From assembly GCA_043797445.1 (NCBI GenBank), contig JAZDPP010000187.1:7228-71227 (forward strand): a stretch of DNA of 64,000 nt, written 5' to 3'. Numbering within the stretch: position 1 is the stretch's first letter; each line of letters begins with the position of its first letter. The notes below the pieces were generated by a model. It had not been told where the DNA came from. It made no database searches and saw only the letters and a program-made list of their open reading frames with translations. This stretch comes from Pseudomonadota bacterium. Its GTDB lineage: Bacteria > Desulfobacterota > Desulfobacteria > Desulfobacterales > JAFDDL01. The position numbers and the translations under genes were made by a program. Positions 20,736 through 38,509 of the stretch are shown piece by piece.

Positions 20736-21758
20736 TCATCTTTTCAACATTTTCTTCATCATGGCGCCCAGCTGTTTCACCCCTTTTCCCTGAGATGCGC
20801 CGGAGCTTGCATTCCCCCCCTCCCGATCAGATGCCGTTTGAGATGCTTCCGGCACTTCCACCTCGATTTCCGCAAGGCGCCCTCCCCCCAGAAACTTAAA
20901 ATCCGGTCCCTGGTCACTCAGCGAGAGACGATAGTCGGTATCCAGCATCCCCTGACCTTCAACGCTCCGGCCATTTATCCGGACCACATTTTTTCCGGTC
21001 AGATCTTTTACCCAGTATTGTTCCTGATGGTAAAAAATCAGCGCATGACGTTCAAAAACAGCGGGATGATCGAGCCGGAAATCACATTGAGCCCCTCTTC
21101 CGATCGTCACCGGAAGGACATTATAGGCTTGCAGGGTCGGGCCGTACTGCACCACAAGGGGCTTTTTAACCTGTTGAATCGGAAAATCCCCTGAATGCGG
21201 CGCCGAAGCCGGTTCGAAAACAGGCGGTTTCGGAGGAAGCGGCGGAGTGAGGGACGGAACCGAAACCGGTTGCGCTGAAACAACGGGTCGTTCCGGAGGC
21301 GGGGGCGACAGGGGCACGGGCCGTTCCGAAGGATATTCCGGCGCGGCCGGCGGTGATGAAACCCGGATCGGCCCGGAGGCCATGGGCGCGGCAACGGCGG
21401 CCGGTTGAACTGCATGGCCGACATCCGCAACGCCTTCCAGCAGTTGAGATAGAAAACTGACTTTGGGCCCGCCCTCGGCGAAAACAAGGATATCCCCATC
21501 CTTAAGAATGGCCTCTTTCACCTGTTTGCCGTTTACGAATGTGCCGTTAGTGCTCTGATCCATCAGCATAAAGCGATTGCCCTCACGAACAATGCGAGCG
21601 TGCACACGGGATACAATAGCCAAATCCTTGGGAAAGCAGACCTGACAGGTGGCGCTCCGGCCGATAAGAATCTCCGGCTGATGGAACTCCTGAATTTCCC
21701 CTTTCAGCGGGCCTTCCATATGAATCAGTTGAATAACGATGGTGGGTGGTTGTTTCAT
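20736..21758 (-). CDS. fha: Double-FHA-domain protein (T6SS Fha/TagH-like phosphothreonine reader)
   Basis: Two FHA cores: IGRSATCQVCFPKD..VSRVHARI...STNGTFVNGK and IGRGAQCDFRLDHP..ERHALI...GKNVVRINGR. They are joined by a Pro-rich linker. Start placed at the MKQPP ATG 21758 with AAAGGA upstream. Confidence 0.85.
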   Translation of the reverse strand: MKQPPTIVIQLIHMEGPLKGEIQEFHQPEILIGRSATCQVCFPKDLAIVSRVHARIVREGNRFMLMDQSTNGTFVNGKQVKEAILKDGDILVFAEGGPKVSFLSQLLEGVADVGHAVQPAAVAAPMASGPIRVSSPPAAPEYPSERPVPLSPPPPERPVVSAQPVSVPSLTPPLPPKPPVFEPASAPHSGDFPIQQVKKPLVVQYGPTLQAYNVLPVTIGRGAQCDFRLDHPAVFERHALIFYHQEQYWVKDLTGKNVVRINGRSVEGQGMLDTDYRLSLSDQGPDFKFLGGGRLAEIEVEVPEASQTASDREGGNASSGASQGKGVKQLGAMMKKMLKR

Positions 21759-22023
21759 GATCCTTTTGCTCTGTAAACGGTTGAAGAGGCCAGCGACTCG
21801 CAAATATCAACATATGAGTATTTATAGATAATAATTGCGCTTACATGTCAAGCAGTTTCATTGCGCCATGGAAGGCGGAGCGGTTCGCATGGAATAAGAA
21901 CCGGAGTGCCGTCAATCCGCCGGTTTTGGAGAAATCAATTGATTTTATAATGCATTCCCGTTAGATAATAGACAGTCTGATATTTCGATATGCTAATTAC
22001 CTTCTTTTACGGTGCGAGCGGCC

Positions 22024-22749
22024 ATGCATAGAATCGTCTCATTCGGCAAAACGGACTGCGGTCTTCGACGCCCCAACAACGAAGATGCTTTCCTGGTAAA
22101 ACTTGAATTCGGTTTTTGTCTGGTAGCGGATGGCATGGGCGGCGCGGCCGCCGGTGAGCTCGCCAGTCAGATTTTTTCGGAAACGACGCTGGAGGTGTTT
22201 TCAACGGCGAATCTTTCCAGTTCAGACCCCGTCAATCTGGTTCAACAGAGTTTTATTTTGGCAAATGCCCGGATCATAAAGCATACGGTTGAAATTCCGG
22301 AGCATAAAGGCATGGGGTGCACGGCTGAGCTGATGGTGTTTTCCGAGGATAAATTCATTCTCGGCCATATGGGTGACAGCCGAAGTTATCGTTATAAAAA
22401 CAGGCAGCTCAAACAGCTGTCTCAGGATCATTCTCTTGTCCAGGAGCAACTCGACAGGGGCCTCATCACACCTGAAGAGGCCAGAAAACACACGATGAAG
22501 AACGTAATTCTCCGCGCCGTAGGCGTGGATGAAACACCTGCTCTTGATCTCATTCGGGGGAATCTATCCACCGGTGACATTTTTCTGCTCTGCTCCGACG
22601 GCCTCACGGATATGGTTGAAGATGCGGACATAATGGCAGTGCTGGCTTCTACGGCGCTGCTGACACGAAAAACGGATCTACTGATCGAGCTGGCCAAGGC
22701 TGCCGGTGGTCATGACAATATTACGGTGGTATTGATCGAAATCGAATGA
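22024..22749 (+). CDS. pppA: PP2C-family Ser/Thr phosphatase (PppA-like)
   Basis: GKTDCGLRRPNNEDAF, VADGMGGAAAGELAS, LLCSDGLTD and GGHDNITVV motifs. The ORF-track start at 22012 is a GTG; the ATG at 22024 is preferred. Confidence 0.9.
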   Translation: MHRIVSFGKTDCGLRRPNNEDAFLVKLEFGFCLVADGMGGAAAGELASQIFSETTLEVFSTANLSSSDPVNLVQQSFILANARIIKHTVEIPEHKGMGCTAELMVFSEDKFILGHMGDSRSYRYKNRQLKQLSQDHSLVQEQLDRGLITPEEARKHTMKNVILRAVGVDETPALDLIRGNLSTGDIFLLCSDGLTDMVEDADIMAVLASTALLTRKTDLLIELAKAAGGHDNITVVLIEIE

Positions 22750-22907: not shown

Positions 22908-23873
22908 ATGATTATTTATTTACGACCGCTTAAGCTGTTAGCCCGGCATATGATTCTATGGATAACCCTCATCATGGTTGTCGAACCGGGTTACAGCGCC
23001 ACAGAAGCATTGGAGAAACGGATTCCCTTATCCGTCGGTGAAATGACCGATCTGCTGATAAGATGGTGGGGAGATTCCGGGTATCGAATCCAACGTACGG
23101 ATCCGGAGATGGGACATGTTCGGCTCCGTGCCATAAAAGACCCGGAAAGCTGGCAGGTGGATCTTTCTCCTCACTCCGCTTTGGAAACCCAAGTGTCGGC
23201 CAGTTTTTCAGGAATGAACCCCGAGGTGCGTCTACAACAATTCTGGGATCACATCTCACTATACCGCCATAACCCGTCAACGCAAGCGCCGCGGAATTCC
23301 GAGCGGAACATACCGGCGGCCGTTCTTTCCAGAATTGAATCGGTGGTCTGCATCAATGCCCGATCGGATGAAAATAACGTCCAGTTTTCAGGCTTCATTA
23401 TCGATACCAATGGGCTCGTTCTCTGCACGGCGCACGATCTGGAAAACAGCCAGCATATCACCGTCACGCTTTTCGATGGCCGGGAGGTAATGGCGAAGCT
23501 TCTTTTCAAGGACCCCCACGTGGATCTTTCGATTCTTCAAATTGCCTTGAAAACAAAGGCTGCGATCCATCTTTCCGGGGGCAGAAATCTCCTGGGAATG
23601 GGCGAAACCATTTTTTCGGTGGGATGTCCCAACAATCTGAGGGACACCGTATATGCGGGAACCATCAACGCCCCGCCACGAAAAATGAATGATCAGCCAC
23701 TATGGCAGGCAAGCATGGAAATCCATCATGGCAGCAGCGGCAGCCCCGTTTTTGACGTCAATGGGAACATCGTTGCCGTGGTCAAGGGAAGATATCGCGG
23801 CACCACCACTACGGGATTTTTAATCCCGATGGAAACCATCTTTAATTTTTTAAAAGAGAAAAATCCGTTATGA
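22908..23873 (+). CDS. Secreted or membrane-anchored trypsin-like (S1/DegP-type) serine protease without PDZ
   Basis: N-terminal hydrophobic segment. Catalytic-triad context TAHD (His), DLSILQI (Asp), GSSGSPVFD (Ser). ATGA overlap with the kinase start. Confidence 0.8.
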   Translation: MIIYLRPLKLLARHMILWITLIMVVEPGYSATEALEKRIPLSVGEMTDLLIRWWGDSGYRIQRTDPEMGHVRLRAIKDPESWQVDLSPHSALETQVSASFSGMNPEVRLQQFWDHISLYRHNPSTQAPRNSERNIPAAVLSRIESVVCINARSDENNVQFSGFIIDTNGLVLCTAHDLENSQHITVTLFDGREVMAKLLFKDPHVDLSILQIALKTKAAIHLSGGRNLLGMGETIFSVGCPNNLRDTVYAGTINAPPRKMNDQPLWQASMEIHHGSSGSPVFDVNGNIVAVVKGRYRGTTTTGFLIPMETIFNFLKEKNPL

Positions 23874-25090
23874 ATTACGGTCGATATGAAATAGAAAAAG
23901 AGTTGGGAAGAGGCGCCATGGGTGTCGTCTATCAGGCCCATGATCCTCAGATTGACCGGCGGGTTGCGCTCAAGGTTCTTCGATCGGACCGGGTCACCAG
24001 TGAAGATTTTGCACAGCGGTTTTTAAAGGAAGCCCGGGCCATCGGCCGGCTTTCCCATCCGTATATCGTCACGGTTTTCGACGTGGGGCATGACCATGGG
24101 ACAGTCTATATTGCAATGGAGTTTTTGGATGGCAGGCCCCTGGATGAAATCCTTCGGGAAAAAGCACTCCCTCTCAAGGAACTCATGAATATCGGCATTC
24201 AGGTCGCTCAAAGTCTTGACTATGCCCATGGGCAAGGCATTGTTCACAGGGATATCAAGCCTTCCAATATCATGCTCACGTCCGAAGGGAGTGTAAAGCT
24301 TACCGACTTCGGAATCGCCCGAATTGAGGATCCAGCCGCCGCCCAGCTCACCCAGGCTGGTGAAATTCTGGGAACCCCCAGCTATATGTCCCCCGAGCAG
24401 GTAAGGGGCCAAACGGTGGATCGCCGATCCGACATTTACTCTCTTGGGGTGATTCTCTATGAAATCTCGACCGGTCGAAGACCTTTTACCGGAAAAAGCA
24501 TCGCTTCCATTTTCAATGCAATTACCAGCGAAACACCGCAGGATCCGATGGCGGTGGAACCTTTTGTCGCACGCGGCGGATCGAAAGCCCTTTCCGAGCT
24601 GATAGTTAAATGTCTGAGCAAAGCGCCGGAGGACCGGTTCCAGAGTGGAAAAATTCTGGCGCAAGCATTATCGACATGCCTTATCGAAGCCGAACCCGCC
24701 GGGAAAGCCGAGAACACACTTCCTCCCAAAAAATCCGGAAAAACCGCTTGGTATGCCGTCCTTGCCGGTTGTATATTAGCTGCCATCATCGGCTTTTATT
24801 GGTTTCAATCCATACGGAAAGTTCCGGCGCCCTTGCCCACGCCGATTATCGAGCCCAAGCCGGTTACGCCCGCACAGCTGTCTGCATTGAACGTGAGCAG
24901 CAATCCGGCCAGCGCTCAAGTATTTATAGACGGATCATTTAGAGGAAACACTCCCCTGAAACTTGATCTTCCGATCGGGAAATACGAAGTCCGGGTAAGC
25001 CTCGCCGATTATTACGAGTATGAAGCACAGGTTCAACTGAAGGACTCGGGTGAATTACCGTTATTGGTTCGCCTGATACCGATGAAATAG
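23870..25090 (+). CDS. ppkA: Transmembrane Hanks-type Ser/Thr kinase with C-terminal PEGA domain (PpkA-like)
   Basis: GRGAMGVVY, VALK, HRDIKPSN, DFGIA and SPEQ kinase motifs. TM segment AWYAVLAGCILAAIIGFYWF. PEGA-like LNVSSNPASAQVFIDGSFRGNTPLKLDLPIGKYEVRV. Confidence 0.9.
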   Translation: MNYGRYEIEKELGRGAMGVVYQAHDPQIDRRVALKVLRSDRVTSEDFAQRFLKEARAIGRLSHPYIVTVFDVGHDHGTVYIAMEFLDGRPLDEILREKALPLKELMNIGIQVAQSLDYAHGQGIVHRDIKPSNIMLTSEGSVKLTDFGIARIEDPAAAQLTQAGEILGTPSYMSPEQVRGQTVDRRSDIYSLGVILYEISTGRRPFTGKSIASIFNAITSETPQDPMAVEPFVARGGSKALSELIVKCLSKAPEDRFQSGKILAQALSTCLIEAEPAGKAENTLPPKKSGKTAWYAVLAGCILAAIIGFYWFQSIRKVPAPLPTPIIEPKPVTPAQLSALNVSSNPASAQVFIDGSFRGNTPLKLDLPIGKYEVRVSLADYYEYEAQVQLKDSGELPLLVRLIPMK

Positions 25091-25143
25091 CACCGCCCGT
25101 GGGGGGGAGCTATTAGCTGTTTGTTAGGTGGGGGTGAGAGAGA

Positions 25144-25199
25144 GGTTAGAGGTTAGAGGTTAGAGGTTAGAGGTTAGAGGTTAGAGGTTAGAGGTTAGA
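25144..25199. repeat. Perfect tandem heptamer array (GGTTAGA)x8
   Basis: Read directly from the sequence: 8 uninterrupted copies, beginning 54 nt after the kinase stop. Confidence 0.95.
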
Positions 25200-25274
25200 A
25201 TTTTGTTAAAAATAAAGAGCAGTTGTCAACAAAAAGAACGAAATGAAGCGAATGGTTAACAGCATTATTTAAGG

Positions 25275-25337
25275 GCTGATAGCTAACGGATAGCAGCTGA
25301 CAGCTAATAGCTGATAGCTGATAGCTGATAGCTAATA
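25275..25337. repeat. Imperfect tandem heptamer array (GCTGATA/GCTAATA/GCTGACA), about 9 units
   Basis: Read directly from the sequence. Ends 5 nt before the AGGAGG Shine-Dalgarno of the 25355 gene. Confidence 0.9.
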
Positions 25338-25354
25338 GCCACAGGAGGTAAACA

Positions 25355-27301
25355 ATGCGACGAATATCAGTTATTCTTACGAAATGTTTAATGGCTTTAT
25401 TGCTATCTTTCACAGCCGATCGGCTATGCATGGCCGAAATCGTGCCCGGGCAGACGGCTCCGGGCTTTTCTCTAAAAGATGCCGGCGGAAAAACCTATGA
25501 TCTTGATGGGATAGCATCCAGGCCGATGGCGATTCTGTACTTCTTCGATGCGGATTCCCGGCCGAGTCAGGAAGGTCTTTTCAGTTTGGACAAACTGACA
25601 AAGCGCTTCACCGGTCAGGAACTGGCCGTATGGGGAATTACAACCTCCGCCAGGGAATCCACCGCCAAGTTCATTTCTCAGACCACTCCGGTATTTCCGG
25701 TTCTCCTCGATCCCGGCAATGTCAGCGATCTTTATGCCGCCCGGACGATTCTGCCGACCATCTGCATCCTCGGACCGGACCGGAAAATCCTCGACTATTT
25801 CCAGGGGGGCGGTAAAACCACTGAAATCATGCTGGTAAAGCTTGCCGAAAGAACCTTGCAACAAAAACAGACCGTGGTAGCCAAGGCCATAAGCGATGCG
25901 GTCATCGAGAAAAACCCGGAAAACATCAAAGCCAAAACCGTCAAGGGGTATGCGGAAATAAAAGAGGGGAATCTGGCGAACGCCGAAAAGATTTTCCAGA
26001 ACGTATCCTCGGGGAAAGGTCAGGCGGAAATTCTGGGGAAGGAAGGACTTAGCGCCGTCTATGCCAAAAAAGGGGATACGCAAAAAGCCCTGAACATGGC
26101 ACAGGAAGTCGAACAGATGGCCCCGGAAAGGCCCTACGCGAATCTCGTGAAAGCGGACATTCTTTACGGCCAGAAGAAAACCAGCGAGGCGGGCGCCGAA
26201 TACGGTAAAGCGGTAGCTAAAAAAGAGGGGGAGCCCTTTCAAAAAGCCGCTGCACTCAACCAGTTTGGGCGCTTTCAAGCGAATTTGGGCAAATTCGATC
26301 AGGCGAGATCGCTTTATGACCAGGCCATCGCGGTAGATCCTTTTTATGTGGAAGCTACATCCAATAAGGGAATGACCTATGAAAAAGAGGGGAAATGGGA
26401 AAACGCCCTGAGTTCCTACCGTCAAGCGCAGGGCCTCGATAAAACCGATACGTTTGCGGCCGTTCTGGCCCAAAAAGCCGAGCAGATGCTCGCCCTTCAG
26501 AAAAACACGGAAAAGCGAAGCGAGATCGACCGGCTGGTGAAGGAACTGGCCGAACGGTTTCGACAGCAACAGAAGGAAACGCCTAAATCCCAGGATACCT
26601 GGACCTCTCGACCCATGATACTAACCTTCGTGGATCTTCAGGAAAAAGGCGGTCTTTCCGAAAGAGACGGGTTCTCAACCGTCATTACCACCGAACTGGG
26701 GGATAAGCTCAATGCCTCGGGCCGGCTAAAAGTCGTTGAGCGGGCCGTCCTGGATCAACTGCTCTCGGAGTTGAATCTCGGATCGTCGGATCTGGCGGAC
26801 CCGGAAACCGCCCTCAAGCTCGGCCGGGTACTTGCCGCTAAAATCATCGGCACCGGCACCTTGCTTCACGGGCCTAACACTACACTGATGAGTCTGAGGC
26901 TTATCGATACGGAAACCACGGCTGTCCCAAAGGTGATCACCCAGGAGCTGGCTTCCGGCGAGATGTTACCTCAAACGCTTCATAGTCTCACACGTGAAAT
27001 CCTGACCGCGATAATTCAGAAATATCCACTCCAGGGCTATGTCGTCCAGGCATCGGAAGAAAAAATCATGCTCAATCTGGGGAAAAACCAGGGCGTCGTG
27101 CAAGGCGCCCAGTTTGAGGTGATCGAAACGCAGGCGCCCATCGAGTACAAGGGCAAAATGCTAAAGGGAGCACCCAAGACCGTCGGGCAAATTGAAATTG
27201 TCAGTACGGAACCGGATCTAAGTTACGCAAAGGTCATTCAAAAAGAGCGTGCGCTGAAACAGGATGATCAGGTGATAGAAAAAATGACGACGGCCCTGTA
27301 G
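25355..27301 (+). CDS. Secreted three-part protein: Cys-less thioredoxin/redoxin-like domain, TPR region, C-terminal CsgG/LpoB-like domain
   Basis: Signal peptide. Redoxin-like GQTAPGFSLKD..PMAILYFFDADSRPSQ has no CxxC. Several TPR units follow. C-terminal ...RLKVVERAVLDQLLSELNLGSSDLADPETALKLGRVLAAKIIGTG...LRLIDTETT. Confidence 0.7.
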   Translation: MRRISVILTKCLMALLLSFTADRLCMAEIVPGQTAPGFSLKDAGGKTYDLDGIASRPMAILYFFDADSRPSQEGLFSLDKLTKRFTGQELAVWGITTSARESTAKFISQTTPVFPVLLDPGNVSDLYAARTILPTICILGPDRKILDYFQGGGKTTEIMLVKLAERTLQQKQTVVAKAISDAVIEKNPENIKAKTVKGYAEIKEGNLANAEKIFQNVSSGKGQAEILGKEGLSAVYAKKGDTQKALNMAQEVEQMAPERPYANLVKADILYGQKKTSEAGAEYGKAVAKKEGEPFQKAAALNQFGRFQANLGKFDQARSLYDQAIAVDPFYVEATSNKGMTYEKEGKWENALSSYRQAQGLDKTDTFAAVLAQKAEQMLALQKNTEKRSEIDRLVKELAERFRQQQKETPKSQDTWTSRPMILTFVDLQEKGGLSERDGFSTVITTELGDKLNASGRLKVVERAVLDQLLSELNLGSSDLADPETALKLGRVLAAKIIGTGTLLHGPNTTLMSLRLIDTETTAVPKVITQELASGEMLPQTLHSLTREILTAIIQKYPLQGYVVQASEEKIMLNLGKNQGVVQGAQFEVIETQAPIEYKGKMLKGAPKTVGQIEIVSTEPDLSYAKVIQKERALKQDDQVIEKMTTAL

Positions 27302-27318
27302 AAGAGGTATAAATAATA

Positions 27319-27813
27319 ATGAAACGATCTTTGCTTTTCATTGCCATATGCTTTCTCCTGTGCAGCTGCGCCACCGCTCCGGTGGCGCCGCCCACGGGTT
27401 CAATCGAGAAAAAACATACCGTTGCCGTCTGGGATCTGGAGAACCTGAGTCCTTTGGGAACCGCTCAGATGGATCTGGGAGATCTTCTTTCCGCCCGGAT
27501 AATCGAAACGGTTCAGCAGGGGGGCTATACGACGATCGAAAGGGAAAAACTGGAGATTGCGCTAAGGGAGCTTAATCTGGGCTCATCGTCACTTGCCGAT
27601 TCATCCACCCAGCTTCGCATCGGTCGAATCGCCGGCGCAAGCCGAATGATATTCGGCGCTTACCAGGTGGTAGGAAATCAGATGCGGCTCGATCTTCGGT
27701 TGGTGGACGTGGAAACGGGCCGCATCCTGAAATCCGCCGAGAAAACCGCCGGTGACGGTGATCTTTCCGGTTGGCTGAAAGCCGCGGAGGCGGCGGCAAA
27801 GGAGTTGCTTTAA
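27319..27813 (+). CDS. Small lipoprotein with CsgG/LpoB-like fold
   Basis: Lipobox-like LLCSC. VAVWDLENLS...YTTIEREKLEIALRELNLGSSSLADSSTQLRIGRIAGASRMIFG...LRLVDVETGRIL is paralogous to the C-terminus of the preceding gene. Confidence 0.7.
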   Translation: MKRSLLFIAICFLLCSCATAPVAPPTGSIEKKHTVAVWDLENLSPLGTAQMDLGDLLSARIIETVQQGGYTTIEREKLEIALRELNLGSSSLADSSTQLRIGRIAGASRMIFGAYQVVGNQMRLDLRLVDVETGRILKSAEKTAGDGDLSGWLKAAEAAAKELL

Positions 27814-27822
27814 CCGCCGATT

Positions 27823-27851
27823 CGGGATCATTCCTTGAAGGAATGATCCCG
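27823..27851. terminator. Bidirectional hairpin between convergent genes
   Basis: CGGGATCATTCC-ttgaa-GGAATGATCCCG, a 12-bp perfect stem, lying between stop 27813 (+) and stop 27869 (-). Confidence 0.6.
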
Positions 27852-27868
27852 GGCACTGCTTTGATGGA

Positions 27869-28990
27869 CTAAAACATTTTTGTCACAATAACGCTGGCGA
27901 CAAACCCGTTGTAAGTTCTGTCGCCGGTATGCCACCAGTTGCGCTCCTCATCAAGGATATAACCGTTCAGACCGAATTCACCTTTCAAAAGCGGAGTGAA
28001 CTGCCTGGCGATGGCGAACGCAAGAGAGATCTTCCGCTTGTCTCCGATATAGAAGGGGGAATCGGACGCATAGTCGTTTTCCATCACGTACATATAGTAT
28101 AATTGAGAACGAAGCGTGGTCTCCTTGGACAAATGATATTTCCAGGCCAAATCGGCGCTCCACTCATCGCCGTAGCTGTCACGATCTTCCGAGGTCAAAC
28201 CTCGACCTTCTTCCTGAAACCGGCTTTTCCCTCTGAAAATTCCCTGAAAGGTCAGCATGACATCCCAATTGGTCTGGTAATAGTTTGAGCCAATCCCGAC
28301 AAGGAAGAATTCGCCTTCTTCATAATAGTCACGGCTTCCGACTTCGTCATTCCCGTACTGGGCGATCTCGCTAAACAGGCGTCCCTGCCACTTGGGTGAA
28401 AAAAAATAAGAGACCTCTCCGGTGAGACTCAAAATATCTCCGGGGTTATAATTCACAACTGTCTCGCTATAATCGTATTCCCCGCGCCAGAGATATCCCA
28501 CGCCGATGCCGGCTGCAAGGTTATTCCAAACCTTCGCGAGAGTAATGGTCGGATTGATGTTAAACCCTTCCCCAAAACGGCTGATCGCGACCAGATCCGG
28601 ATCCAGAACCAAACCCTGTTCCTTTTTATCGAGTTTGGTCTTTCCGGTGGGAAGATTAAAATCAAGGCCAAAGACGAGGTCGGCAAAAAACTTATCGACA
28701 ATCTCGTACGAAAGATTTGCTTTGGTATCAATGATGCATGAAAGCGAATCACTTGTCCCAACGGATGGATCCGAATAAGTATGGGCAAACGAGGTCAATA
28801 TTTTCGCCGAAAAATTGGATTGCTCGGCAAAAATGGATATGGGGATATATGTTTGACTTCCCCGATGATCATCGTCGCTGTCCCACCAGTTAAAATTCAA
28901 GCCGGTCTGGATGTTGACATTGACCGCGTAACTCACGCCGCCACTTACCAAAAATAAAAACACCGCAATTACCCAGACTATTTTCTTCAT
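27869..28990 (-). CDS. Outer-membrane beta-barrel protein, unknown specificity
   Basis: Signal peptide MKKIVWVIAVFLFLVSGGVSYA. Alternating amphipathic strands rich in Y/G/N/D. C-terminal ...VIVTKMF with terminal Phe. Confidence 0.65.
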   Translation of the reverse strand: MKKIVWVIAVFLFLVSGGVSYAVNVNIQTGLNFNWWDSDDDHRGSQTYIPISIFAEQSNFSAKILTSFAHTYSDPSVGTSDSLSCIIDTKANLSYEIVDKFFADLVFGLDFNLPTGKTKLDKKEQGLVLDPDLVAISRFGEGFNINPTITLAKVWNNLAAGIGVGYLWRGEYDYSETVVNYNPGDILSLTGEVSYFFSPKWQGRLFSEIAQYGNDEVGSRDYYEEGEFFLVGIGSNYYQTNWDVMLTFQGIFRGKSRFQEEGRGLTSEDRDSYGDEWSADLAWKYHLSKETTLRSQLYYMYVMENDYASDSPFYIGDKRKISLAFAIARQFTPLLKGEFGLNGYILDEERNWWHTGDRTYNGFVASVIVTKMF

Positions 28991-29018
28991 ATCTTTAATC
29001 CTTTCTGGGGAAAATCCA

Positions 29019-31478
29019 TTAATCTATTGGTACGCAAATTGACCCGGAGCCAAATATTATCAGCATACAATGACCTGTATCTCCACAGTCGGTAAGGCCG
29101 TCGCAATTGTTATCAACCCCATCATCGCAGATTTCCGCCGCGATGGGGGATATGCCTTGATTGGAATCGTTACAGTCTCCCTGGTTCTCGGTATAACCAT
29201 CCCCGTCGTTATCGATGTCATTCGGATTGATAGTACAATCAATGCCATCGCAGTCCTGGTCTATTTGGTCATTACAGATTTCGGTCGCGCCGGGGTGAAT
29301 ACTCGCGTTCCCGTCGTTGCAATCGCCCATTGTCTCCGTGTAGCCATCTCCGTCATTATCCACGTCATTGGGATCGGGGGGGCATGCCTCATCGCTCCCA
29401 TTACAGTCCTGATCGATACTATCCCCGCATTTCTCCACGGCGCCCGGATGGATACTCGCGTTCCCGTCGTTGCAATCGCCCTGTCTCTCCGTATAGCCAT
29501 CACCGTCATTATCTACGTCATTGGGATCGGGGGGACAAACCTCATCGCTCCCATTACAATCCTGATCGATACTATCCCCGCATATCTCCACGGCGCCCGG
29601 ATGGATGCTTGCGTTCCCGTCGTTGCAATCGCCCTGTCGCTCCGTATAGCCATCACCGTCATTATCCGCGTCATTGGGATCGGGGGGGCAAATCGTATCG
29701 CTCCCATTACAGTCCTGATCGATACTATCTCCGCATATATCCACGGCGCCGGGATGAACCCCCACGTTTGCATCGTTGCAGTCACCCTGTCGGACCGTAT
29801 AGCCATCTCTGTCATTGTCTATATCATCCGAGCAACTCAAATCACTCCCGTTACAATCTTGATCAATCCCATCGCCGCATAACTCCCTTGCACCGGGATG
29901 AATTTCCCAGTTCCCGTCGTTGCAATCTCCCTGTTTTTCGGTGTAGCCATCTGCGTCATTATCGATTTCATCGGGACAAATCGCATCACTTCCATCACAG
30001 TCCTGATCGATCCCATCGCTACATATTTCCACCGCTCCGGGGTGAATGCTCGCATCGGTATCATTACAGTCCCCCTGATTCCGCTTATAGCCGTCTCCGT
30101 CACCATCAATATCCACCGGGCAGGCCAAATCGCTCCCGTTACAATCCTGATCGATACTATCCCCGCATATCTCCGTGGCGCCCGGATGGATACCCGCGCT
30201 CCCGTCGTTGCAATCGCCCTGTCGCTCCGTATAGCCATCACTGTCATTATCCACGTCATTGGGATCGGGGGGGCAGGCCGCATCGCTCCCATTACAGTCC
30301 TGATCGATACTATCCCCGCATATCTCCGTGGCGCCGGGATGGATACCCGCACTCCCGTCGTTGCAATCGCCCTGTCTCTCCGTGTAACCATCACCGTCAT
30401 TATCTATGTCTTCCGGGCATTTCAGATCACTCCCGTTACAGTCCTGGTCAATCCCATCGCCGCATGTTTCCGCGGCGCCGGGGTGTATGGTTGCATCGGT
30501 ATCGTTACAATCCCCCTGGTTCTCCGTAAACCCATCTTTATCATTGTCCACGTCATCCGGTTTGGGCGGCCTCAGACTCTGACGTTTTTCCACTTCCAGG
30601 GGCGTTCTGGTCCGACGCACCACCTGATCCGGTGACAACTGATCCGTAAGTGAAGTCCGGTCTCGAAGGGATCTTAAGAAAGCGCGAGAATCGTTAGTCC
30701 TGCCGATCAGCCCGAGAACTTCCAATTCTTTCAGTGAATCAGAGGCGGGTATCAGCCCCGGATCGGCTTTCAGGGCCATCCGATAGAAATTTGCGGCCAT
30801 CTGGTAATTCCCCTGATCACTTTCATGAAACCCCCTGAAGAGAAAAATCAGCGCCTCCAGACTGGTGGTCATCGGTTTTCGTAACTCCGCCTCGATTTCC
30901 TTCGTTGCCGGGGTTATTTTCAGATTATCCAGAATTCCAAATAGAACATCCTTCTCCATTCGGAAAATTTCCTCAAGAAGCCCCTTGCTATCGGGAAGAT
31001 CCGTAAGCTTTGCGTCACTCGTGTTTAACACACCAGGATCGATCCCGAATTGCTCCAAATCGGATTTATAAAATTTTCCACCAACCACTTGAGCCGCTCC
31101 CAACAGCCGCCCGACCCGGGGGGCGGTATCGGGATCGACCAATCCCGATTTACCAAGGCCTATTTCTTCCACCAGCGCCTGAAGCTTTGCGCGCTCCACG
31201 AGTTGGAGTCCGTCTACTTTGGACAGATCGGTTATCAGCATATAGGCAAACCCTTTTTGAACGGGATCCAGCGCGGGCGAACCGGTATCATTTATAAAGT
31301 AGAGAATCGCAAGGGTACCCGGCGTGCCGGCGCCCTCAAGGGCTTTTTCCTGGGCGACCGCAACCTTGGCCCAATTCCGGTGCGAATCGGTTACCACCTG
31401 ACCGGCCCAACCCGTTCCGGTAACAAAGCTCCAAAGGAGAATGCCCCCCGTGACTTGACACAACCATTTCTTCATCAT
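29019..31478 (-). CDS. Large secreted protein: N-terminal CsgG/LpoB-like domain, TPR-like segment, then 10 Cys-rich MopE-type / TSP3-like repeats
   Basis: N-terminus LAILYFINDTGS...LQLVERAKLQALVEEIGLGKSGLVDPDTAPRVGRLLGA. Ten units of D-x-D-N-D-G-D-G-Y-T-E-x-Q-G-D-C-N-D-x3-I-H-P-G-A-x-E-x-C-G-D-x-I-D-Q-D-C-N-G-S-D-x2-C. Confidence 0.8.
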   Translation of the reverse strand: MMKKWLCQVTGGILLWSFVTGTGWAGQVVTDSHRNWAKVAVAQEKALEGAGTPGTLAILYFINDTGSPALDPVQKGFAYMLITDLSKVDGLQLVERAKLQALVEEIGLGKSGLVDPDTAPRVGRLLGAAQVVGGKFYKSDLEQFGIDPGVLNTSDAKLTDLPDSKGLLEEIFRMEKDVLFGILDNLKITPATKEIEAELRKPMTTSLEALIFLFRGFHESDQGNYQMAANFYRMALKADPGLIPASDSLKELEVLGLIGRTNDSRAFLRSLRDRTSLTDQLSPDQVVRRTRTPLEVEKRQSLRPPKPDDVDNDKDGFTENQGDCNDTDATIHPGAAETCGDGIDQDCNGSDLKCPEDIDNDGDGYTERQGDCNDGSAGIHPGATEICGDSIDQDCNGSDAACPPDPNDVDNDSDGYTERQGDCNDGSAGIHPGATEICGDSIDQDCNGSDLACPVDIDGDGDGYKRNQGDCNDTDASIHPGAVEICSDGIDQDCDGSDAICPDEIDNDADGYTEKQGDCNDGNWEIHPGARELCGDGIDQDCNGSDLSCSDDIDNDRDGYTVRQGDCNDANVGVHPGAVDICGDSIDQDCNGSDTICPPDPNDADNDGDGYTERQGDCNDGNASIHPGAVEICGDSIDQDCNGSDEVCPPDPNDVDNDGDGYTERQGDCNDGNASIHPGAVEKCGDSIDQDCNGSDEACPPDPNDVDNDGDGYTETMGDCNDGNASIHPGATEICNDQIDQDCDGIDCTINPNDIDNDGDGYTENQGDCNDSNQGISPIAAEICDDGVDNNCDGLTDCGDTGHCMLIIFGSGSICVPID
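29080..30566. repeat. In-frame tandem DNA repeats (about 130-140 bp period) encoding the 10 Cys-rich modules
   Basis: Several units are identical or near-identical at protein level, e.g. DNDSDGYTERQGDCNDGSAGIHPGATEICGDSIDQDCNGSD occurs twice. The array produces long spurious ORFs in other frames. Confidence 0.85.
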
Positions 31479-32312: not shown

Positions 32313-33275
32313 CTATTCCGGAATCGGTTCCGTGTCGGGAATCGGAATCGGTTCCGTATCCGGGATCTGTATTTCAGGAAGCGTTTCGGTTTCCCCACCC
32401 TTTTCTACCTTGAACATTTCCCTGATGCGCTCGATGGAGACCAGTTTACCTTTCCTTGAAGAGGGCGTTAACAGGGATTTCAGCTTCATTTCCAGCGTGC
32501 GCGGATGCAAGTTGCTTCCGATGGCAACAACCCCTTCCAATATAATCTTCTGCAACAGGAGCTCATGATCGGTTCGCTCCTGAATATGCGCGTTAAGCGG
32601 CAAGAAGAGAAAATTGGCCAATAGAAGACCGTAAAGCGTCGATGTCAATGCGATGGGAACCGTTGCGAGAATGGTTGCCGTGTCGCCGACTCCCGCCAAC
32701 ATGGCTATCAATCCGACGATACTGCCGACAAGGCCGAAGGCGGGGCTGCTTTCTCCGAGCGTTCTGAGAATCCGTTCAATTTCCTCCCGGCGCATCCGAA
32801 AAAAGAACATCTCGGTATTTAAAAAATCCCGAATCTGAGCAACAGGATATCCATCCACCAAAAGCCCCAGCGCATGCCTCAGGAAAAGAACGCTTGCCTC
32901 TTCCTCATCCTCCTGAAGCGACAACAGCCCCTTGAGTTTACTTTTCAAAGACAGATCCACCAACGCTTCGATAATCTCCTCGGGCCGCTTTTGCCGGGAC
33001 CGGAAGGACACCTTTAACACCTTCCAGACAACGGCCAGCCGCTCCAGTCCGAAACTGATCATCGCGGCTCCCATGGTGCCCCCGACCACGATCAGAAAAC
33101 TTGCCAGGTTAAAATACAGCCCTATCTGCCCCCCGATTAAAATTCCGGCAAGAAACAGAATCAGAAAAATCACCAGCCCGACCATATTCCGGTGACTTTT
33201 TAAAGACTCCCGGATTATTTGCTTCTTTTGATTTCGATCCGTATCCATAGGATTTTGCTCGCTCCCCGAAAACAT
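32313..33275 (-). CDS. motA: MotA/PomA-family proton-channel stator subunit with acidic Pro-rich C-terminal tail
   Basis: SPAFGLVGSIVGLI and ALTSTLYGLLLANFLFLP (conserved Pro-containing TM3/TM4 motifs). Tail TETLPEIQIPDTEPIPIPDTEPIPE. The start codon is uncertain. Confidence 0.75.
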   Translation of the reverse strand: MFSGSEQNPMDTDRNQKKQIIRESLKSHRNMVGLVIFLILFLAGILIGGQIGLYFNLASFLIVVGGTMGAAMISFGLERLAVVWKVLKVSFRSRQKRPEEIIEALVDLSLKSKLKGLLSLQEDEEEASVLFLRHALGLLVDGYPVAQIRDFLNTEMFFFRMRREEIERILRTLGESSPAFGLVGSIVGLIAMLAGVGDTATILATVPIALTSTLYGLLLANFLFLPLNAHIQERTDHELLLQKIILEGVVAIGSNLHPRTLEMKLKSLLTPSSRKGKLVSIERIREMFKVEKGGETETLPEIQIPDTEPIPIPDTEPIPE

Positions 33276-33296: not shown

Positions 33297-34136
33297 TTAT
33301 TCTCCGGGCTGCGCGCCGACCGGTTTCTTTTTGGTCAGAATGATTTCAACCCGACGGTTTTCAGCGCGACTTTTTACGTCCGTATTGGGTTTGACCGGCT
33401 GAAAATATGAATACCCGCTAACAAAAAACCGCTCGGCGGGAATGTGTGTCCGCTCAATGAGAAACCGGGTGACCGTGCAAGCCCGAATGGCCGAAAGTTC
33501 CCAGTTGGTGGCAAACTGATCCGAGTGAATCGGCACATCATCCGTATGCCCAACGACATTGATAACATCATCGGTCTCCCGAATGACGGCCGCAACTTCG
33601 CGAAGGGATTTTTCCGCTTGCGGTTTCAATTCAGCCCGACCCGTATCGAACAACAGATCCGCCGGCAAAACGATTCGAACCGCCTTGTCTTCCATCAACT
33701 TGAATCGTTCGATCTCTTTCATCGTTTCCAGCCGCGCCGTTTCAATCGGACGCTCGATGTCTTTCATCATCTCCAGCTTCAGCTTGATGTCGCTCAGTTC
33801 ATCGGGCGTCCGTTTCTTTTCTCCCGGCGAGATCTTCGTTTTTTCTTCCTTGGCTTTCGCGGATTGCGCTTTCATGGATTCGCCATAATGGAAATCCCGG
33901 TTGGCGGCCTGATAAATATAAAGGACGGCAAACATAATAAACATGGTCATCATGATATCAGACCAGACCACCGACCAGTGCACCTGCCGGGGGGTTCTGG
34001 ATCGAAAAACACTCTGCTCGCCCTGCATGGAGAAACAGTCGAAGGCGCCGGTAGCTAACCCAGTTGTAACATTACCGGTATCGCCGGAATTCTCCGTGGG
34101 CATTTGGATCTCTTTTTCTTTTGAATGCTCGTCCAT
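33297..34136 (-). CDS. motB: MotB/OmpA-family stator subunit
   Basis: TM with conserved Asp (VVWSDIMMTMFIMFAVLY). C-terminal OmpA-like peptidoglycan-binding domain (FDTGRAEL...VVGHTDDVP...NWELSAIRA...NRRVEI). Confidence 0.8.
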   Translation of the reverse strand: MDEHSKEKEIQMPTENSGDTGNVTTGLATGAFDCFSMQGEQSVFRSRTPRQVHWSVVWSDIMMTMFIMFAVLYIYQAANRDFHYGESMKAQSAKAKEEKTKISPGEKKRTPDELSDIKLKLEMMKDIERPIETARLETMKEIERFKLMEDKAVRIVLPADLLFDTGRAELKPQAEKSLREVAAVIRETDDVINVVGHTDDVPIHSDQFATNWELSAIRACTVTRFLIERTHIPAERFFVSGYSYFQPVKPNTDVKSRAENRRVEIILTKKKPVGAQPGE

Positions 34137-34463: not shown

Positions 34464-36002
34464 TCACGGGGTCTTTTTTTCCCACTCGAACCGGGTGATA
34501 TTTCGATGTTCCTTGCTGAACTCAATCCCGATCAAGTAGACTTCCTGGTCCATAAACTTATCCGCGTAGCCCTTGGATTTGATCTGTTCCAGGGCATGCC
34601 CGTCCTCGCTCAATTCCACGACTTTGAATTCAAGGATATAGACGCGGTTTTCGAATCGGATGGTCAAATCGATCCGGCCCGCGCTGGTGGTTTCCTCCGG
34701 ATGGACATCGAGACCCAAGGCGGCGAAATAGCAATAAACGATGGAGGCGTAATACCCTTCGTATCCGGCCAGTTGATTCTTGCGATACCAATCATGGGGG
34801 ATCGAGGCAAAAAACGCATGGAAGGTTTGTTCCAGCTTTTTGAAATCGTTTGAAACCAAGGCCTCATAAATGGCGACCTTGTTGTTCTCCTTTTCCATCG
34901 TATTGGTGGTCAGGTAGTAGAGAATATAATCCGTCAGACTCTGTTTGACCTCAAAATTCGGATAGCCGAGTTCATATTGCACCATGCCGGCGAGTCTTGT
35001 TTTATTTTTGATGGTGAGGTATCCGGTTTGAAACAGAAGGGTTTCAATTTCCAACCGATCAACGTCGAAGCTGCCGATAATGCTGGCGCTTGCTTTTATG
35101 CTCTCGATGCAAGGAATGTAATACTTTTTAGTTTCCAGCAACTTGATTAAAAATGTCGGCGTGGCGGTCTCGAACCAATAGGACAGGAATTCCTTGTTTC
35201 TCAGATACAGCAGGATATCGAACGGATTGTATACTTCCTCACCCGTCCAGTTGTATCCATTGTACCACTTACGGACTTGGTCCAGGTCCACGCCTTCCAG
35301 CCACTCGATGAAAGTTGTCTTCAAATCTTCTTGCGTATATCCACAAATCGCGGAATACGGCACGCTCAGGGTGATGTCTTCCAGGTTGTTTAGGCCGCTG
35401 AAAAGGGAAACCTTGCTGAATTTGCTGACTCCGGTGATAAATACGAGCTGGATATAAGGATCGCTGTCCTTGATAATGGAATAATAGTTTTTCAGCTCTT
35501 CACGGATGACGATCGCAGTTTCCAGATTGTCGATATTGTCTAAAATGGGTTTGTCATATTCATCCACCAAGATAATGACCTTGCCGCGATATCGATTGAA
35601 GAGAATTTGAATCAGTTCGGCGAACCTGTTTCTCAGATCGGCGCATGTAAGTTGTACGGCATATTGTCGGGCATGCTCGCTAAGAATATAATCGAAGCTG
35701 TTTCGCAATTCCTCGACGTTTCTATGGACTCCCGATCCAAAACTGATATGCACGACCGGCGCCGTTTTATCCCAGTCCCAGTGGCTATAAAGGTAGAGAC
35801 CCTGAAACAGCTCCCTTTGCCCCCGGTAAGCCGATTTGAGTGTGCTCAGGAAAAGGCTCTTGCCGAAGCGTCTCGGCCTGGAAAGGAAATAATATTTACC
35901 TTCCTCCGCCAGCTTCTTTATATAAGCGGTTTTATCGACATAGTAATATCCTTCTTCAATCAAATTCTGGAAGGTTTGTATGCCAATTGGAAGCTTTTTC
36001 AT
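34464..36002 (-). CDS. AAA-ATPase-like / PD-(D/E)XK nuclease family protein (DUF1703-type)
   Basis: N-terminus KKLPIGIQTFQNLIEEGYYYVDKTAYIKKL...YFLSRPRRFGKSLFLSTL is diagnostic of the family. C-terminal GRIDLTI...YILEFKV PD-(D/E)XK-like core. Start placed at the MKKLP ATG 36002. Confidence 0.8.
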   Translation of the reverse strand: MKKLPIGIQTFQNLIEEGYYYVDKTAYIKKLAEEGKYYFLSRPRRFGKSLFLSTLKSAYRGQRELFQGLYLYSHWDWDKTAPVVHISFGSGVHRNVEELRNSFDYILSEHARQYAVQLTCADLRNRFAELIQILFNRYRGKVIILVDEYDKPILDNIDNLETAIVIREELKNYYSIIKDSDPYIQLVFITGVSKFSKVSLFSGLNNLEDITLSVPYSAICGYTQEDLKTTFIEWLEGVDLDQVRKWYNGYNWTGEEVYNPFDILLYLRNKEFLSYWFETATPTFLIKLLETKKYYIPCIESIKASASIIGSFDVDRLEIETLLFQTGYLTIKNKTRLAGMVQYELGYPNFEVKQSLTDYILYYLTTNTMEKENNKVAIYEALVSNDFKKLEQTFHAFFASIPHDWYRKNQLAGYEGYYASIVYCYFAALGLDVHPEETTSAGRIDLTIRFENRVYILEFKVVELSEDGHALEQIKSKGYADKFMDQEVYLIGIEFSKEHRNITRFEWEKKTP

Positions 36003-36241
36003 TCTATCACCCCCCATACCCCTATCTTGTGGCGCGCTCCCCACCCACTTGCTGTGATATGAGCCGTGTGAAGAAAAATATTCCCCCCGGGGGTTACGGA
36101 CCTTGTCCTGCTTTCTGCCGGACAAAATGAAGGCGGATTACCTGCTGTTGCTGAAAACGCGATGGGGAAGGTTATTGTCATCGGTTGGACCCAAACGGAC
36201 ATCATCCGGGATATTGCCCGAGTGGCAGAATTCAAGGAAAC

Positions 36242-36583
36242 TCACCTCAGATCCAGGCTCAATTTAAGCGCCTGATTGACGCTATCCATGGTGTCCGGCC
36301 GCAATTGCCCCAATCTCTTTCCAAGCCTGTCTTTGGAAACCGTGAGAATCTGACTTGTCCTAACAATGCAAGGCCGATCGAGCCCCCCTTCCGGCGGGTC
36401 AATCAATACATTCATGGGATAAATTTTCAGCGACGTCGAAATTGCGGCAACGATTGTTGTCGTGGCCTTTTCATTGCCGATGTCGTTCTGGATAACAACC
36501 GCCGGTCTCAGCCCTGCCTGCTCGCTTCCCCGGGATGGATTCCAATTGATAATCCAAACCTCCCCTCTTTTTGGATTTCCCAT
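36242..36583 (-). CDS. mazF: MazF/PemK-family endoribonuclease toxin
   Basis: PKRGEVWIINWNPSRGSEQAGLRPAVVIQND...VAAISTS...RPCIVRTSQILTVSKDRL. TGATG stop/start overlap with the upstream antitoxin. Confidence 0.85.
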   Translation of the reverse strand: MGNPKRGEVWIINWNPSRGSEQAGLRPAVVIQNDIGNEKATTTIVAAISTSLKIYPMNVLIDPPEGGLDRPCIVRTSQILTVSKDRLGKRLGQLRPDTMDSVNQALKLSLDLR

Positions 36584-36816
36584 CAGACCAACACTTCCGA
36601 TTGAGCACATAACGTCGCTTCCGCAAACCCCCTATCCTCCTCGGCCATCTCCATATATCCTTTTGCCATCAGGTCCTCTGTTTTGCTTTTCAACCAAAGC
36701 GCAAACGCTTCTTGGGCAAGGTGACTCTTGGCCATCCGATAACGCTTCGATGCACTCTCAATTGCTTCAAGCATACCGGAATCAATCGTCAAACTGATCT
36801 TTTTCTTGGTTCGCAC
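36583..36816 (-). CDS. mazE: Ribbon-helix-helix (CopG/MazE-like) antitoxin
   Basis: (V)RTKKKISLTIDSGMLEAIE is an RHH beta-strand plus helix. GTG at 36816 sits 5 nt after GGAGG. The ORF-track ATG at 36885 lies upstream of the predicted promoter. Confidence 0.7.
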   Translation of the reverse strand: MRTKKKISLTIDSGMLEAIESASKRYRMAKSHLAQEAFALWLKSKTEDLMAKGYMEMAEEDRGFAEATLCAQSEVLV

Positions 36817-36850
36817 AGCATCCTCCAAATAAATATCATCATTATGGGGT

Positions 36851-36879
36851 ATATAATATCGCCTCAATTGTCTTGTCAA
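36851..36879 (-). promoter_or_regulatory. Sigma-70-like promoter with overlapping palindromic operator for mazEF
   Basis: Minus strand reads TTGACA-N17-TTATAT. The near-palindrome ATTGTTCTTGACAAGACAAT overlaps the -35. Confidence 0.55.
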
Positions 36880-36934
36880 GAACAATTAGCATATGCTTTA
36901 TGAAAAACCGTAGTTTACGGGGCCGATGACCATG

Positions 36935-38182: not shown

Positions 38183-38509
38183 AATAGGATTCCATTCCGC
38201 TTATATCGCATATATATTAGTATCACAATACTATTTTTATCGAATTTTAAAGAAGCCACCCATTCACCCATACACTTACCGATTGAATTCGGTTCGTTAC
38301 AAAATCAGCATCACCGTCAAAGACGATTGATCGCTGTCAGATTCTTGACACGGACAATAGCTCTTTGTCTCTATATTTACCGTCATCGGGGAAATGATGG
38401 CTATTTTTTCTTGTGGCCAGGCCGCCAATCACAATATGCTTGACGAAATACCGTCAAAGCGGCAAATATTAGCTACAAATTTCGATTTAGCCCGGCATGG
38501 ATTCTGAAA

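Follow-up and report, generated by a model that had tools for sequence, protein, structure and literature searches.

The 64,000-nucleotide stretch of DNA analysed here (the window; contig JAZDPP010000187.1 of assembly GCA_043797445.1, from a Desulfobacterales bacterium) carries four genes at 25355-31478, named A, B, C and D, that encode envelope proteins. These four genes are the envelope half of a larger conserved cluster of nine to ten genes, whose cytoplasmic half appears from its domains to be a switch composed of a Ser/Thr kinase, a PP2C phosphatase and an FHA protein. Directly established are the domain content, the export signals, the homology of three domains, the intact catalytic residues of the kinase and of an accompanying protease, the gene order, and the frequent adjacency to type VI secretion system (T6SS) genes or to sheath-like relatives of them. 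The four genes are posited, with a probability of roughly 45%, to form a periplasmic and outer-membrane module that provides input to, or an anchor for, a threonine-phosphorylation switch controlling the T6SS; it would function as TagQRST, RtkS or TssW do, from seemingly unrelated parts. On this view the T6SS would be controlled post-translationally through an envelope module of an altogether different make.

Gene content and conserved order

A preliminary description of the locus, made from the letters alone, named four proteins, and the listing of open reading frames (ORFs) confirms all of them in position and strand. Gene A (25355-27301, plus strand) encodes a secreted protein of 648 amino acids with a Cys-less redoxin fold, a TPR region and a FlgT-like C-terminal half. 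It is followed by B (27319-27813, plus strand), which encodes a 164-amino-acid outer-membrane lipoprotein with a single CsgG/FlgO/LpoB-type alpha/beta domain. The minus strand carries D (29019-31478), whose secreted 819-amino-acid product joins an N-terminal part of about 300 amino acids (D_N) to 10 MopE repeats, and C (27869-28990), which encodes a 373-amino-acid outer-membrane beta-barrel with a C-terminal Phe. The two pairs converge, and 55 bp separate the B stop codon from that of C. D and C appear to constitute a two-gene operon; terminator-like and promoter-like sites occur on the minus strand upstream of D, a scan signal that is not above shuffled expectation and amounts to a weak hint only. 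Two convergent operons of four genes, as first described, proved too small a unit, since A and B, judging from gene order in relatives, end a five-gene operon of the form PP2C-protease-kinase-A-B. The kinase, which had been taken for a neighbouring T6SS gene, is itself a conserved member of the cluster, as are the PP2C phosphatase, the protease and the FHA protein.

The first gene of this operon encodes a PP2C phosphatase of the Stp1/IreP family (22012-22749, plus strand; Pfam and NCBIfam), which scores 234.8 bits against the NCBIfam model Stp1_PP2C (cut-off 230). Next comes an exported serine protease of the Trypsin_2/HtrA type (22908-23873, plus strand; Pfam Trypsin_2) that has no PDZ domain. 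Its triad, H176/D206/S277, is invariant in relatives, and it possesses a conserved N-terminal domain of unassigned fold. The third gene encodes a Hanks-type Ser/Thr kinase (23870-25090, plus strand) that crosses the membrane once and has a PEGA domain on the periplasmic side (Pfam: Pkinase 200 bits, PEGA 48.7 bits), in which the catalytic residues K35/D128/N133/D146 are invariant in relatives and the PEGA domain is conserved. Divergent from the operon lies the gene for a cytoplasmic protein in which a Pro-rich linker accompanies two FHA domains (20736-21803, minus strand; Pfam FHA twice), the presumed phospho-threonine reader.

Conservation was followed through about 170 related loci, whose six-frame ORFs were searched with the window proteins. 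They derive from a barrel-family scan of species-representative genomes (79 loci), from homologues on long contigs (L001-L005 and L085-L093) and from an A-family scan of metagenome contigs (80 loci), and the A-centred set amounts to 89 loci. Each count includes only loci whose sequence extends far enough on the side concerned, and the counts overstate independent events because the samples include near-duplicate lineages. In the recurrent arrangement, (sheath-like gene)-FHA diverges from PP2C-trypsin-like protease-PEGA kinase-A-B, which converges with barrel-(optional middle gene)-D_N. Among A-centred loci, B comes after A in 75 of 76, the protease is found in 61 of 63, the kinase precedes A in 61 of 67, and a barrel or D_N gene lies downstream of A in 37 of 52; PP2C (42/60) and FHA (32/52) genes are also frequent. 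Seen from the barrel, D_N lies upstream in 67 of 71 loci, the protease is present in 31 of the 33 with room for it, and B stands in the downstream flank, within 10 kb, in 42 of 63, its stop codon being at most 500 bp from that of the barrel gene in 28 of the 63. The four genes are therefore co-conserved across genomes, as the preliminary description had anticipated, and the convergent placement of B and the barrel across phyla argues for functional coupling of the D_N-barrel pair with A, B and the kinase.

The cluster occurs in at least Desulfobacterota, Nitrospirota and Bacteriovoracaceae, with barrel identities to the window protein down to 36%. Lineages met in the barrel scan are Desulfosarcina, Desulfobacterales, Syntrophaceae, Geobacter-like bacteria, Desulfomonilia, Thermodesulfovibrionia/Nitrospiraceae, Bacteriovoracaceae and one metagenome-assembled genome (MAG) of Deferribacteres. 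The protease is the most faithful partner of A and B and is kept even in Desulfosarcina loci that lack the kinase. In kinase-less loci of this type, the gene of a protein with VWA and FHA domains adjoins the protease-A-B operon (15245-17140 in L001/L014; equivalents in L009, L015 and L017). The envelope module may have this protein as another output in such loci.

Envelope proteins and their shared domain

Protein A has an ordinary Sec signal peptide and a conserved N-terminus with no Cys, and appears to have no lipobox; signal peptides and lipoboxes were judged by eye and by conservation. Pfam assigns residues 31-155 to AhpC-TSA/Redoxin (47.7 bits), about 160-400 to several TPR families, 442-503 to CsgG (26.1 bits, cut-off 20.8) and 569-632 to FlgT_C (28.9 bits, cut-off 27), while NCBIfam returned only sub-threshold TPR matches for A. 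The redoxin fold is also supported by ResA structures matched in a sequence search of the PDB. Both catalytic cysteines of the thioredoxin/AhpC fold, however, have been lost from residues 1-160 (25355-25840): SRPS replaces CxxC, with Ser68 invariant and Ser71 nearly invariant among 28 aligned family members. The conserved serines in place of CxxC indicate a non-catalytic thioredoxin fold, which probably serves for binding and not for catalysis. The family comprises at least 884 clusters of homologues at E<=1e-20, and database entries name the proteins of the cluster only 'TPR repeat protein/peroxiredoxin' or 'hypothetical'. This annotation, so far free of any function, gains a concrete genomic context from the cluster.

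The C-terminal 244 residues of A (405-648) were modelled with AlphaFold2 at a predicted local distance difference test (pLDDT) score of 78.5. Foldseek matched the model best to FlgT, both in the Vibrio LPHT-ring (8z5n, E 1.5e-11) and in the FlgT crystal structure (3w1e, E 7.6e-11), followed by the TolB N-domain, LpoB, GNA1162, CsgG and PelC, the matches ranging from E 1e-11 to 1e-4. The template modelling (TM) score against the FlgT structures is only about 0.4. The two-domain fold of FlgT_N and FlgT_C is present, consisting of a TolB-N/LpoB/CsgG-type alpha/beta domain and the FlgT_C beta-barrel domain, and the FlgT middle domain is absent.

In lipoprotein B, the lipobox Cys17 is invariant in the family alignment and the whole mature domain, of about 125 amino acids, is LpoB-sized. 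Pfam scores are 40.1 bits for CsgG, 28.4 for FlgO (cut-off 22.6) and 21.4 for LpoB, just under the cut-off of 22.3; PDB matches are weak, with LpoB at E 0.017 by sequence and CsgG at E 0.011 by profile, and NCBIfam returned nothing for B, C or D. No PBP (penicillin-binding protein) gene is conserved near B in the related loci. In one locus, L091, a gene of the FGE-sulfatase family (12052-13092, minus strand) follows A in place of B; it belongs to the same family as TagR, the periplasmic PpkA activator in Pseudomonas.

Three CsgG-like segments, one each in A, B and D, had been said to share a domain, and profile comparisons agree. Using profiles built from the orthologues of each family, hhalign aligned the B family with the N-terminal family of D at 98.6% probability (E 8e-16) and with the A family at 98.9% (E 1.4e-17), which shows homology well beyond chance. 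The signature proposed for the three segments is exact in B and a consensus elsewhere: A keeps 15 and D 14 of its first 16 fixed positions, and D is without the final LRL.D.ET seen in A and B. The most conserved motif of the domain, VER..L...L.EL.LGSS.LAD..T....GR, sits in a low-confidence loop of the A model that is probably ordered by a partner.

Both Pfam and Foldseek place the shared segment among the CsgG/LpoB/FlgO-type folds, in keeping with the preliminary description. A fold group of PqiC-, LptE-, PelC- and CsgG-like outer-membrane lipoproteins was defined in a 2026 paper, in which LptE plugs the LptD barrel while PelC, PqiC and CsgG form rings, the relatives of these three being 8-12-mers (PMC13631591). 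By structure comparison for A, and by homology to it for B and D, the domain has this LptE/PelC/LpoB/FlgT/CsgG (TolB-N-like) lipoprotein fold and is not a CsgG channel. The term 'CsgG-like' is consequently appropriate for the fold family and not for a secretion channel. Although CsgG scores exceed the Pfam gathering cut-off in A, B and D, the profile is covered only at positions 33-98 in these proteins and about 6-100 in relatives, out of 210, and the part containing the membrane hairpins is therefore not matched. An amyloid secretion system built on CsgG paralogues would further require explaining why B is LpoB-sized and why A and D appear to have no lipobox. Pfam families of the curli partners CsgA/B/E/F are found neither among the window neighbours nor in 12 Pfam-annotated related loci. 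A curli-type channel is so improbable on these grounds that it was rejected. The statement that the genes match no curli, LpoB-PBP or flagellar H-ring set is also supported, as no such partners appear in any annotated neighbourhood.

Protein D resembles A in its ordinary Sec signal peptide and conserved non-Cys N-terminus, and it too appears to have no lipobox. Its D_N part consists of a conserved N-terminus, a CsgG-type alpha/beta domain (Pfam CsgG 28.1 bits, residues 70-135) and a helical part with one TPR motif; the fold proposed for it rests on profile-profile homology to A and B. The ten Cys-rich, putative metal/Ca-binding repeats reported earlier are borne out by ten matches to the family Cu-binding_MopE (297 bits), with ten DxDxDG[YF] starts and 42 Cys in residues 300-819. 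The D_N family contains 190 representative clusters at E<=1e-30, and its long members carry 1-15 MopE repeats. As such fusions are common in the family, the window protein would represent a common 'fused' variant.

Protein C is the predicted outer-membrane barrel. The AlphaFold model has about 16 strands (pLDDT 86, predicted TM score 0.79), which together with the C-terminal Phe fits the barrel first described. C itself has no Pfam match, and its homologues, 186 in number, show weak matches to Phenol_MetA_deg, MipA and MtrB_PioB. The most conserved motif, NLPTG...DPDL...GEGFNINP, falls within one loop (residues 112-147). Assignment to a specific barrel family by structure was rejected, as Foldseek returned only generic porins and exporters (CymA, OprD, AlgE, FadL, BcsC) at TM about 0.5 and 8-12% identity; a PDB sequence search with C gave chance matches only. 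A Slam/DUF560 barrel, suggested by one UniRef name, was likewise rejected because 0 of 32 barrel homologues match DUF560.

The D_N-barrel pair is a separable module. Some MAGs encode two of these modules, only one of which has A and B nearby (L020/L026 and L030/L072). In 34 of 69 loci (among L003, L004 and L019-L081), D_N and the barrel flank a middle gene encoding 228-1704 amino acids, and in the other 35 D_N stands directly beside the barrel and is often extended. Almost all middle proteins are apparent lipoproteins with a lipobox Cys, a Gly/Ser-rich linker and a shared N-terminal domain of about 130 amino acids, followed by a variable part with Big_9, cadherin-like, He_PIG, PKD, fn3, beta-helix or RCC1 domains. 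The shared domain, which no Pfam family matches, exists as two subtypes, and one of them has a pair of conserved Cys (GGPW.C..G.G). It may serve in docking on, or targeting to, the barrel or D_N.

Proposed link to type VI secretion and competing explanations

The FHA gene adjoins the T6SS gene cluster of the window (1-20719, plus strand; Pfam), in which TssM is cut by the window start. This cluster encodes TssM, TagF, ImpE/TagJ, TssA, TssB, TssC, Hcp, TssE, TssF, TssG and ClpV, together with a TPR-methyltransferase, a VipA-VipB-like fusion, VgrG, DUF4123 and DUF4280/PAAR-like proteins. TagF is present, but the window T6SS includes no other kinase, phosphatase or FHA gene, and the kinase-PP2C-FHA trio therefore takes the position of TagE/TagG/TagH. 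Among A-centred loci with at least 1.7 kb beyond FHA, 25 of 29 have a T6SS-type gene there, which abuts FHA in 16; the figure for A-centred loci with full flanks is 14 of 23. The chance of meeting T6SS genes within 10 kb of a random gene was estimated at about 1%, from cluster size over genome size. Canonical T6SS core genes flank the cluster in ten loci (L085, L087, L117, L118, L120, L142, L144, L165, L166 and L168), those seen being TssA/B/C/E/F, TssJ/K/L/M, VgrG, ClpV and PAAR-like genes.

A sheath-like gene recurs beside FHA in related loci. Its relative in the window, a VipA-VipB (TssB-TssC-like) fusion (15871-17433, plus strand; Pfam, NCBIfam), is a sheath paralogue of 520 amino acids with a VipA (TssB)-like N-terminus and a VipB (TssC) N-domain but no C-terminal VipB_2, and it scores below the NCBIfam TssC cut-off (229 vs 271 bits). 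Between ClpV and this fusion lies a gene whose product joins TPR repeats to a class I methyltransferase domain (14451-15866, plus strand). Divergent sheath-like relatives stand directly beside FHA in more than 20 loci (L029, L032, L035, L058, L059, L071, L083, L088, L090, L092, L093, L112-L114, L129, L132, L135, L143, L149, L151, L156, L158 and L162), often with no other T6SS core gene in view. The ORF, of about 525 amino acids, has VipA and VipB N-domain Pfam matches where tested, aligns with the window TssC and fusion at E 1e-13 to 1e-22, and also follows FHA in seven barrel-centred loci. The kinase/FHA switch could have this sheath-like protein as its true target or partner.

A link to the T6SS phosphorylation pathway, offered as a possibility in the preliminary description, is favoured because A and B appear co-transcribed with the kinase in nearly every relative and because T6SS-type genes accompany the cluster at 25 of 29 loci. 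In the mechanism envisaged, D_N would dock beneath barrel C or within it, following the examples of PelC beneath PelB and LptE in LptD, and the pair would keep at the outer membrane a variable part, Cys-rich or Ig-like and either at the surface or periplasmic, namely the MopE repeats in this genome and a separate lipoprotein elsewhere. B and the FlgT-like half of A would join the outer-membrane complex through the shared alpha/beta domain, and the TPR and Cys-less redoxin domains of A would reach the periplasmic PEGA domain of the kinase. Upon envelope perturbation or contact, the trypsin-like protease may cleave one of the partners, leading to kinase activation. The kinase would then phosphorylate its target, the two-FHA protein would read phospho-threonine and promote T6SS or sheath assembly at the site, and PP2C would reset the switch. 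A more far-reaching version, which is distinctly doubtful, posits a widespread trans-envelope receptor in Desulfobacterota, Nitrospirota and predatory Bacteriovoracaceae, with hypervariable surface lipoproteins or MopE proteins, kept at the barrel by an LptE/PelC-fold partner, acting as contact or damage sensors that signal through A, B and the protease to the PEGA kinase, so that the T6SS, or a sheath-like paralogue, is fired at the contact site and recognition of a target is tied to firing.

Several observations weigh against T6SS control. In 16 A-centred loci the T6SS-type gene is the divergent sheath-like ORF of about 525 amino acids beside FHA, and in many loci such a gene is the sole T6SS-type neighbour. 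T6SS genes are absent from the well-flanked loci L064, L076, L086, L091, L136 and L164, and the kinase, PP2C, protease and FHA genes occur also where no canonical T6SS gene is in view (for example L064, L076, L086, L136 and L164). About one third of barrel-centred loci have no A or B within 10 kb, the D_N-barrel module lying far from them. The Desulfosarcina group and the L097-L104 lineage keep protease-A-B-barrel-D with no kinase or PP2C at the usual place, which indicates that the envelope proteins can exist without this kinase arrangement. Finally, Stk1/Stp1 (PknB-type) models are the nearest to the kinase and PP2C, and the FHA protein misses the TagH cut-off (69.5 vs 120 bits), its best score being against FhaB/FipA; the three are not orthologues of PpkA, PppA and Fha1.

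The main rival, which is rather unlikely, regards the D_N-barrel pair as an independent outer-membrane display or export module: D_N and C would be a translocon or anchor, following the logic of LptDE, PelBC or Slam, for a variable lipoprotein or adhesin or for the MopE repeats, the kinase operon would simply stand beside the display genes or regulate display, and the T6SS would not be the output. Independent surface assembly or secretion had been the alternative in the preliminary description, and it is sustained by the separability of the module and the variable lipoprotein gene in half of the loci. Modules remote from A and B, their presence twice per genome in L020+L026 and L030+L072, the typical surface-protein repertoire of the middle proteins and the frequent D_N-MopE fusions are all expected from it, and the fold family offers both a barrel plug in LptE and a ring under a barrel in PelC. 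It is at odds with the convergence of the module on B across phyla at the distances given above, and with a barrel that bears no Slam/DUF560, LptD or PelB signature; moreover, D_N does not appear to be a lipoprotein, and the surface exposure that this reading requires is putative.

Two further explanations rank below it. A periplasmic ring of A (FlgT-like) and B (FlgO/FlgP-like), associated with the outer membrane and similar to the Vibrio flagellar H-ring or basal disc, could brace or position the T6SS membrane complex while the kinase only monitors assembly. This is improbable, even with FlgT as the best match of the C-terminal half of A, Pfam FlgT_C in A and FlgO in B, ring formation among CsgG, PelC and PqiC relatives, a MotA/PomA-like and MotB-like pair beside the cluster in the window and L085, and a precedent in TssW for an outer-membrane anchor that can position the T6SS. 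The TM-scores of about 0.4 and the missing FlgT middle domain count against it, only 2 of about 170 loci have the MotAB-like pair next to the cluster, and genes co-transcribed with those of a kinase, a phosphatase and a protease more typically belong to a signalling system than to a static scaffold. Slightly less probable again is a PknB/Stp1/FhaB-like switch, fed by LpoB-like and TPR (LpoA-like) outer-membrane proteins, that tunes peptidoglycan or outer-membrane biogenesis, with the T6SS adjacency being secondary. The best scores of the kinase (Stk1/PknB) and the FHA protein (FhaB/FipA), the PP2C score above the Stp1/IreP cut-off and the resemblance of B to LpoB are in line with it, and some loci are bordered by the housekeeping genes ispF and cysS (L064, L073, L087) or by an FHA-SLT transglycosylase gene (L011). 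However, the neighbourhood has no conserved PBP, SEDS or Lpt/Bam genes, the LpoB score of B is under the Pfam cut-off, and the association with T6SS or sheath-like genes is far above chance.

Comparison with known systems

If the cluster does control the T6SS, its closest counterpart is the TagQRST-PpkA-PppA-Fha1 pathway of the Pseudomonas aeruginosa H1-T6SS, where an outer-membrane lipoprotein and periplasmic partners are likewise found beside a membrane Hanks kinase, PP2C, FHA and the T6SS core, and TagF is shared with the window. The envelope parts differ. Among the window cluster proteins there are no Pfam matches to FGE-sulfatase (TagR) or ABC-type (TagS/T) families and there is no TagQ homologue, and a protease, a barrel and three LptE/LpoB/FlgT-fold proteins are added. 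The periplasmic domain of PpkA is VWA-like, whereas that of the window kinase is a PEGA domain, and the FHA protein, with its two FHA domains, falls short of the TagH cut-off.

Another comparison is offered by systems in which accessory envelope proteins encoded with ppkA and fha activate or position the T6SS. TagQRST and RtkS of Serratia are upstream envelope partners encoded beside ppkA/fha that activate or position the T6SS (PMC13584744). TssW of Acidovorax citrulli, an outer-membrane-associated anchor whose gene has ppkA on one side and fha on the other, makes contact with PpkA and TssJ/TssM at their periplasmic domains (PMC12607579). The present cluster has five envelope proteins instead of one; the distinction from TssW and RtkS is drawn from their descriptions only, which mention no CsgG- or PEGA-type parts (PMC12607579, PMC13584744).

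The flagellar proteins FlgT, FlgO and FlgP of the Vibrio H-ring and outer-membrane disc resemble A, through its FlgT two-domain fold (Foldseek E about 1e-11), and B, through its FlgO match, and all are outer-membrane-proximal periplasmic proteins. A differs in its extra TPR and redoxin-like domains as well as in the missing FlgT middle domain. Flagellar neighbours (flgO/P, motX/Y, LP-ring genes) are found neither in the window nor in related loci, the only candidate being the sub-cut-off MotA/MotB-like pair.

LptE-LptD, PelC-PelB, PqiC and CsgG share the core fold, and, as in such systems, a member of the fold (D_N) is encoded right beside an outer-membrane barrel. Unlike LptE, PelC and CsgG, neither D_N nor A appears to be a lipoprotein, the barrel of about 16 strands has no sequence relation to LptD or PelB, the membrane hairpins of CsgG are missing, and lipopolysaccharide, Pel and curli genes are absent. 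Half of the related loci resemble Slam (type XI secretion) in that the barrel gene adjoins a variable lipoprotein gene with a long flexible linker. Slam itself is defined by a 14-strand DUF560 barrel with an N-terminal TPR, whereas C has about 16 strands, no TPR and no DUF560 match. Slam cargo proteins have their barrel domain at the C-terminus; the putative cargo here is conserved in its N-terminal part, and the window has no separate lipoprotein cargo.

That the cluster is uncharacterised, as first claimed, is in agreement with its generic database names and with a 2026 review of T6SS accessory genes, which lists nothing like it (PMC13584744). Literature on CsgG-like proteins with T6SS or kinases, on PEGA with PpkA/Fha, and on the T6SS of Desulfobacterota also yielded no description of the cluster. 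Control over when and where a T6SS fires is understood in a few Proteobacteria only (TagQRST, RtkS, TssW). Should T6SS control be correct, the cluster would be a fourth and seemingly unrelated solution, spread over several phyla of mostly uncultured anaerobes, in which a kinase switch is coupled to a protease, three paralogous LptE/LpoB/FlgT-fold proteins, a barrel and a highly variable adhesin-like component. If that component is surface-exposed, it would provide a route to target-specific T6SS activation. If the T6SS is not the output, the D_N-lipoprotein-barrel combination would still be a new way of handling surface lipoproteins.

The spacer preceding A is peculiar to the lineage of the window. 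The kinase and A are separated by 264 bp (25091-25354), against 9-56 bp at the same junction in annotated relatives, and the spacer contains two perfect or near-perfect heptamer arrays, AGAGGTT x8.4 (25141-25199) and AGCTGAT x6.4 (25295-25339). A simple promoter and terminator scan, itself a weak hint only, found no terminator-like site on the plus strand of the spacer, which appears from this comparison to be a lineage-specific insertion inside the operon. The arrays could allow slippage-based variation of A/B expression. Further hexamer and heptamer arrays occur elsewhere in the window (GCTGAAG x3.7 at 55859-55884 and AAGAGC x10.7 at 60433-60551).

Beyond D, a MotA/PomA-like gene (32313-33275, minus strand) and a gene for a MotB/OmpA-like peptidoglycan binder (33297-34136, minus strand) adjoin the cluster, both below the NCBIfam flagellar-stator cut-offs. 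A similar pair directly follows B in L085 (12692-14652), and general membership in the cluster was rejected for these genes in view of their adjacency in those two loci only. Farther downstream, at 34464-40554, are mobile or defence-type genes, comprising AAA-ATPase_like/PDDEXK_9 and AAA_14/DUF4143 proteins, a short HipA_C-only ORF and an NTase substrate-binding protein. From about 40 to 52 kb the G+C content is lower (0.39-0.47 vs about 0.52), which together with these genes suggests an island boundary.

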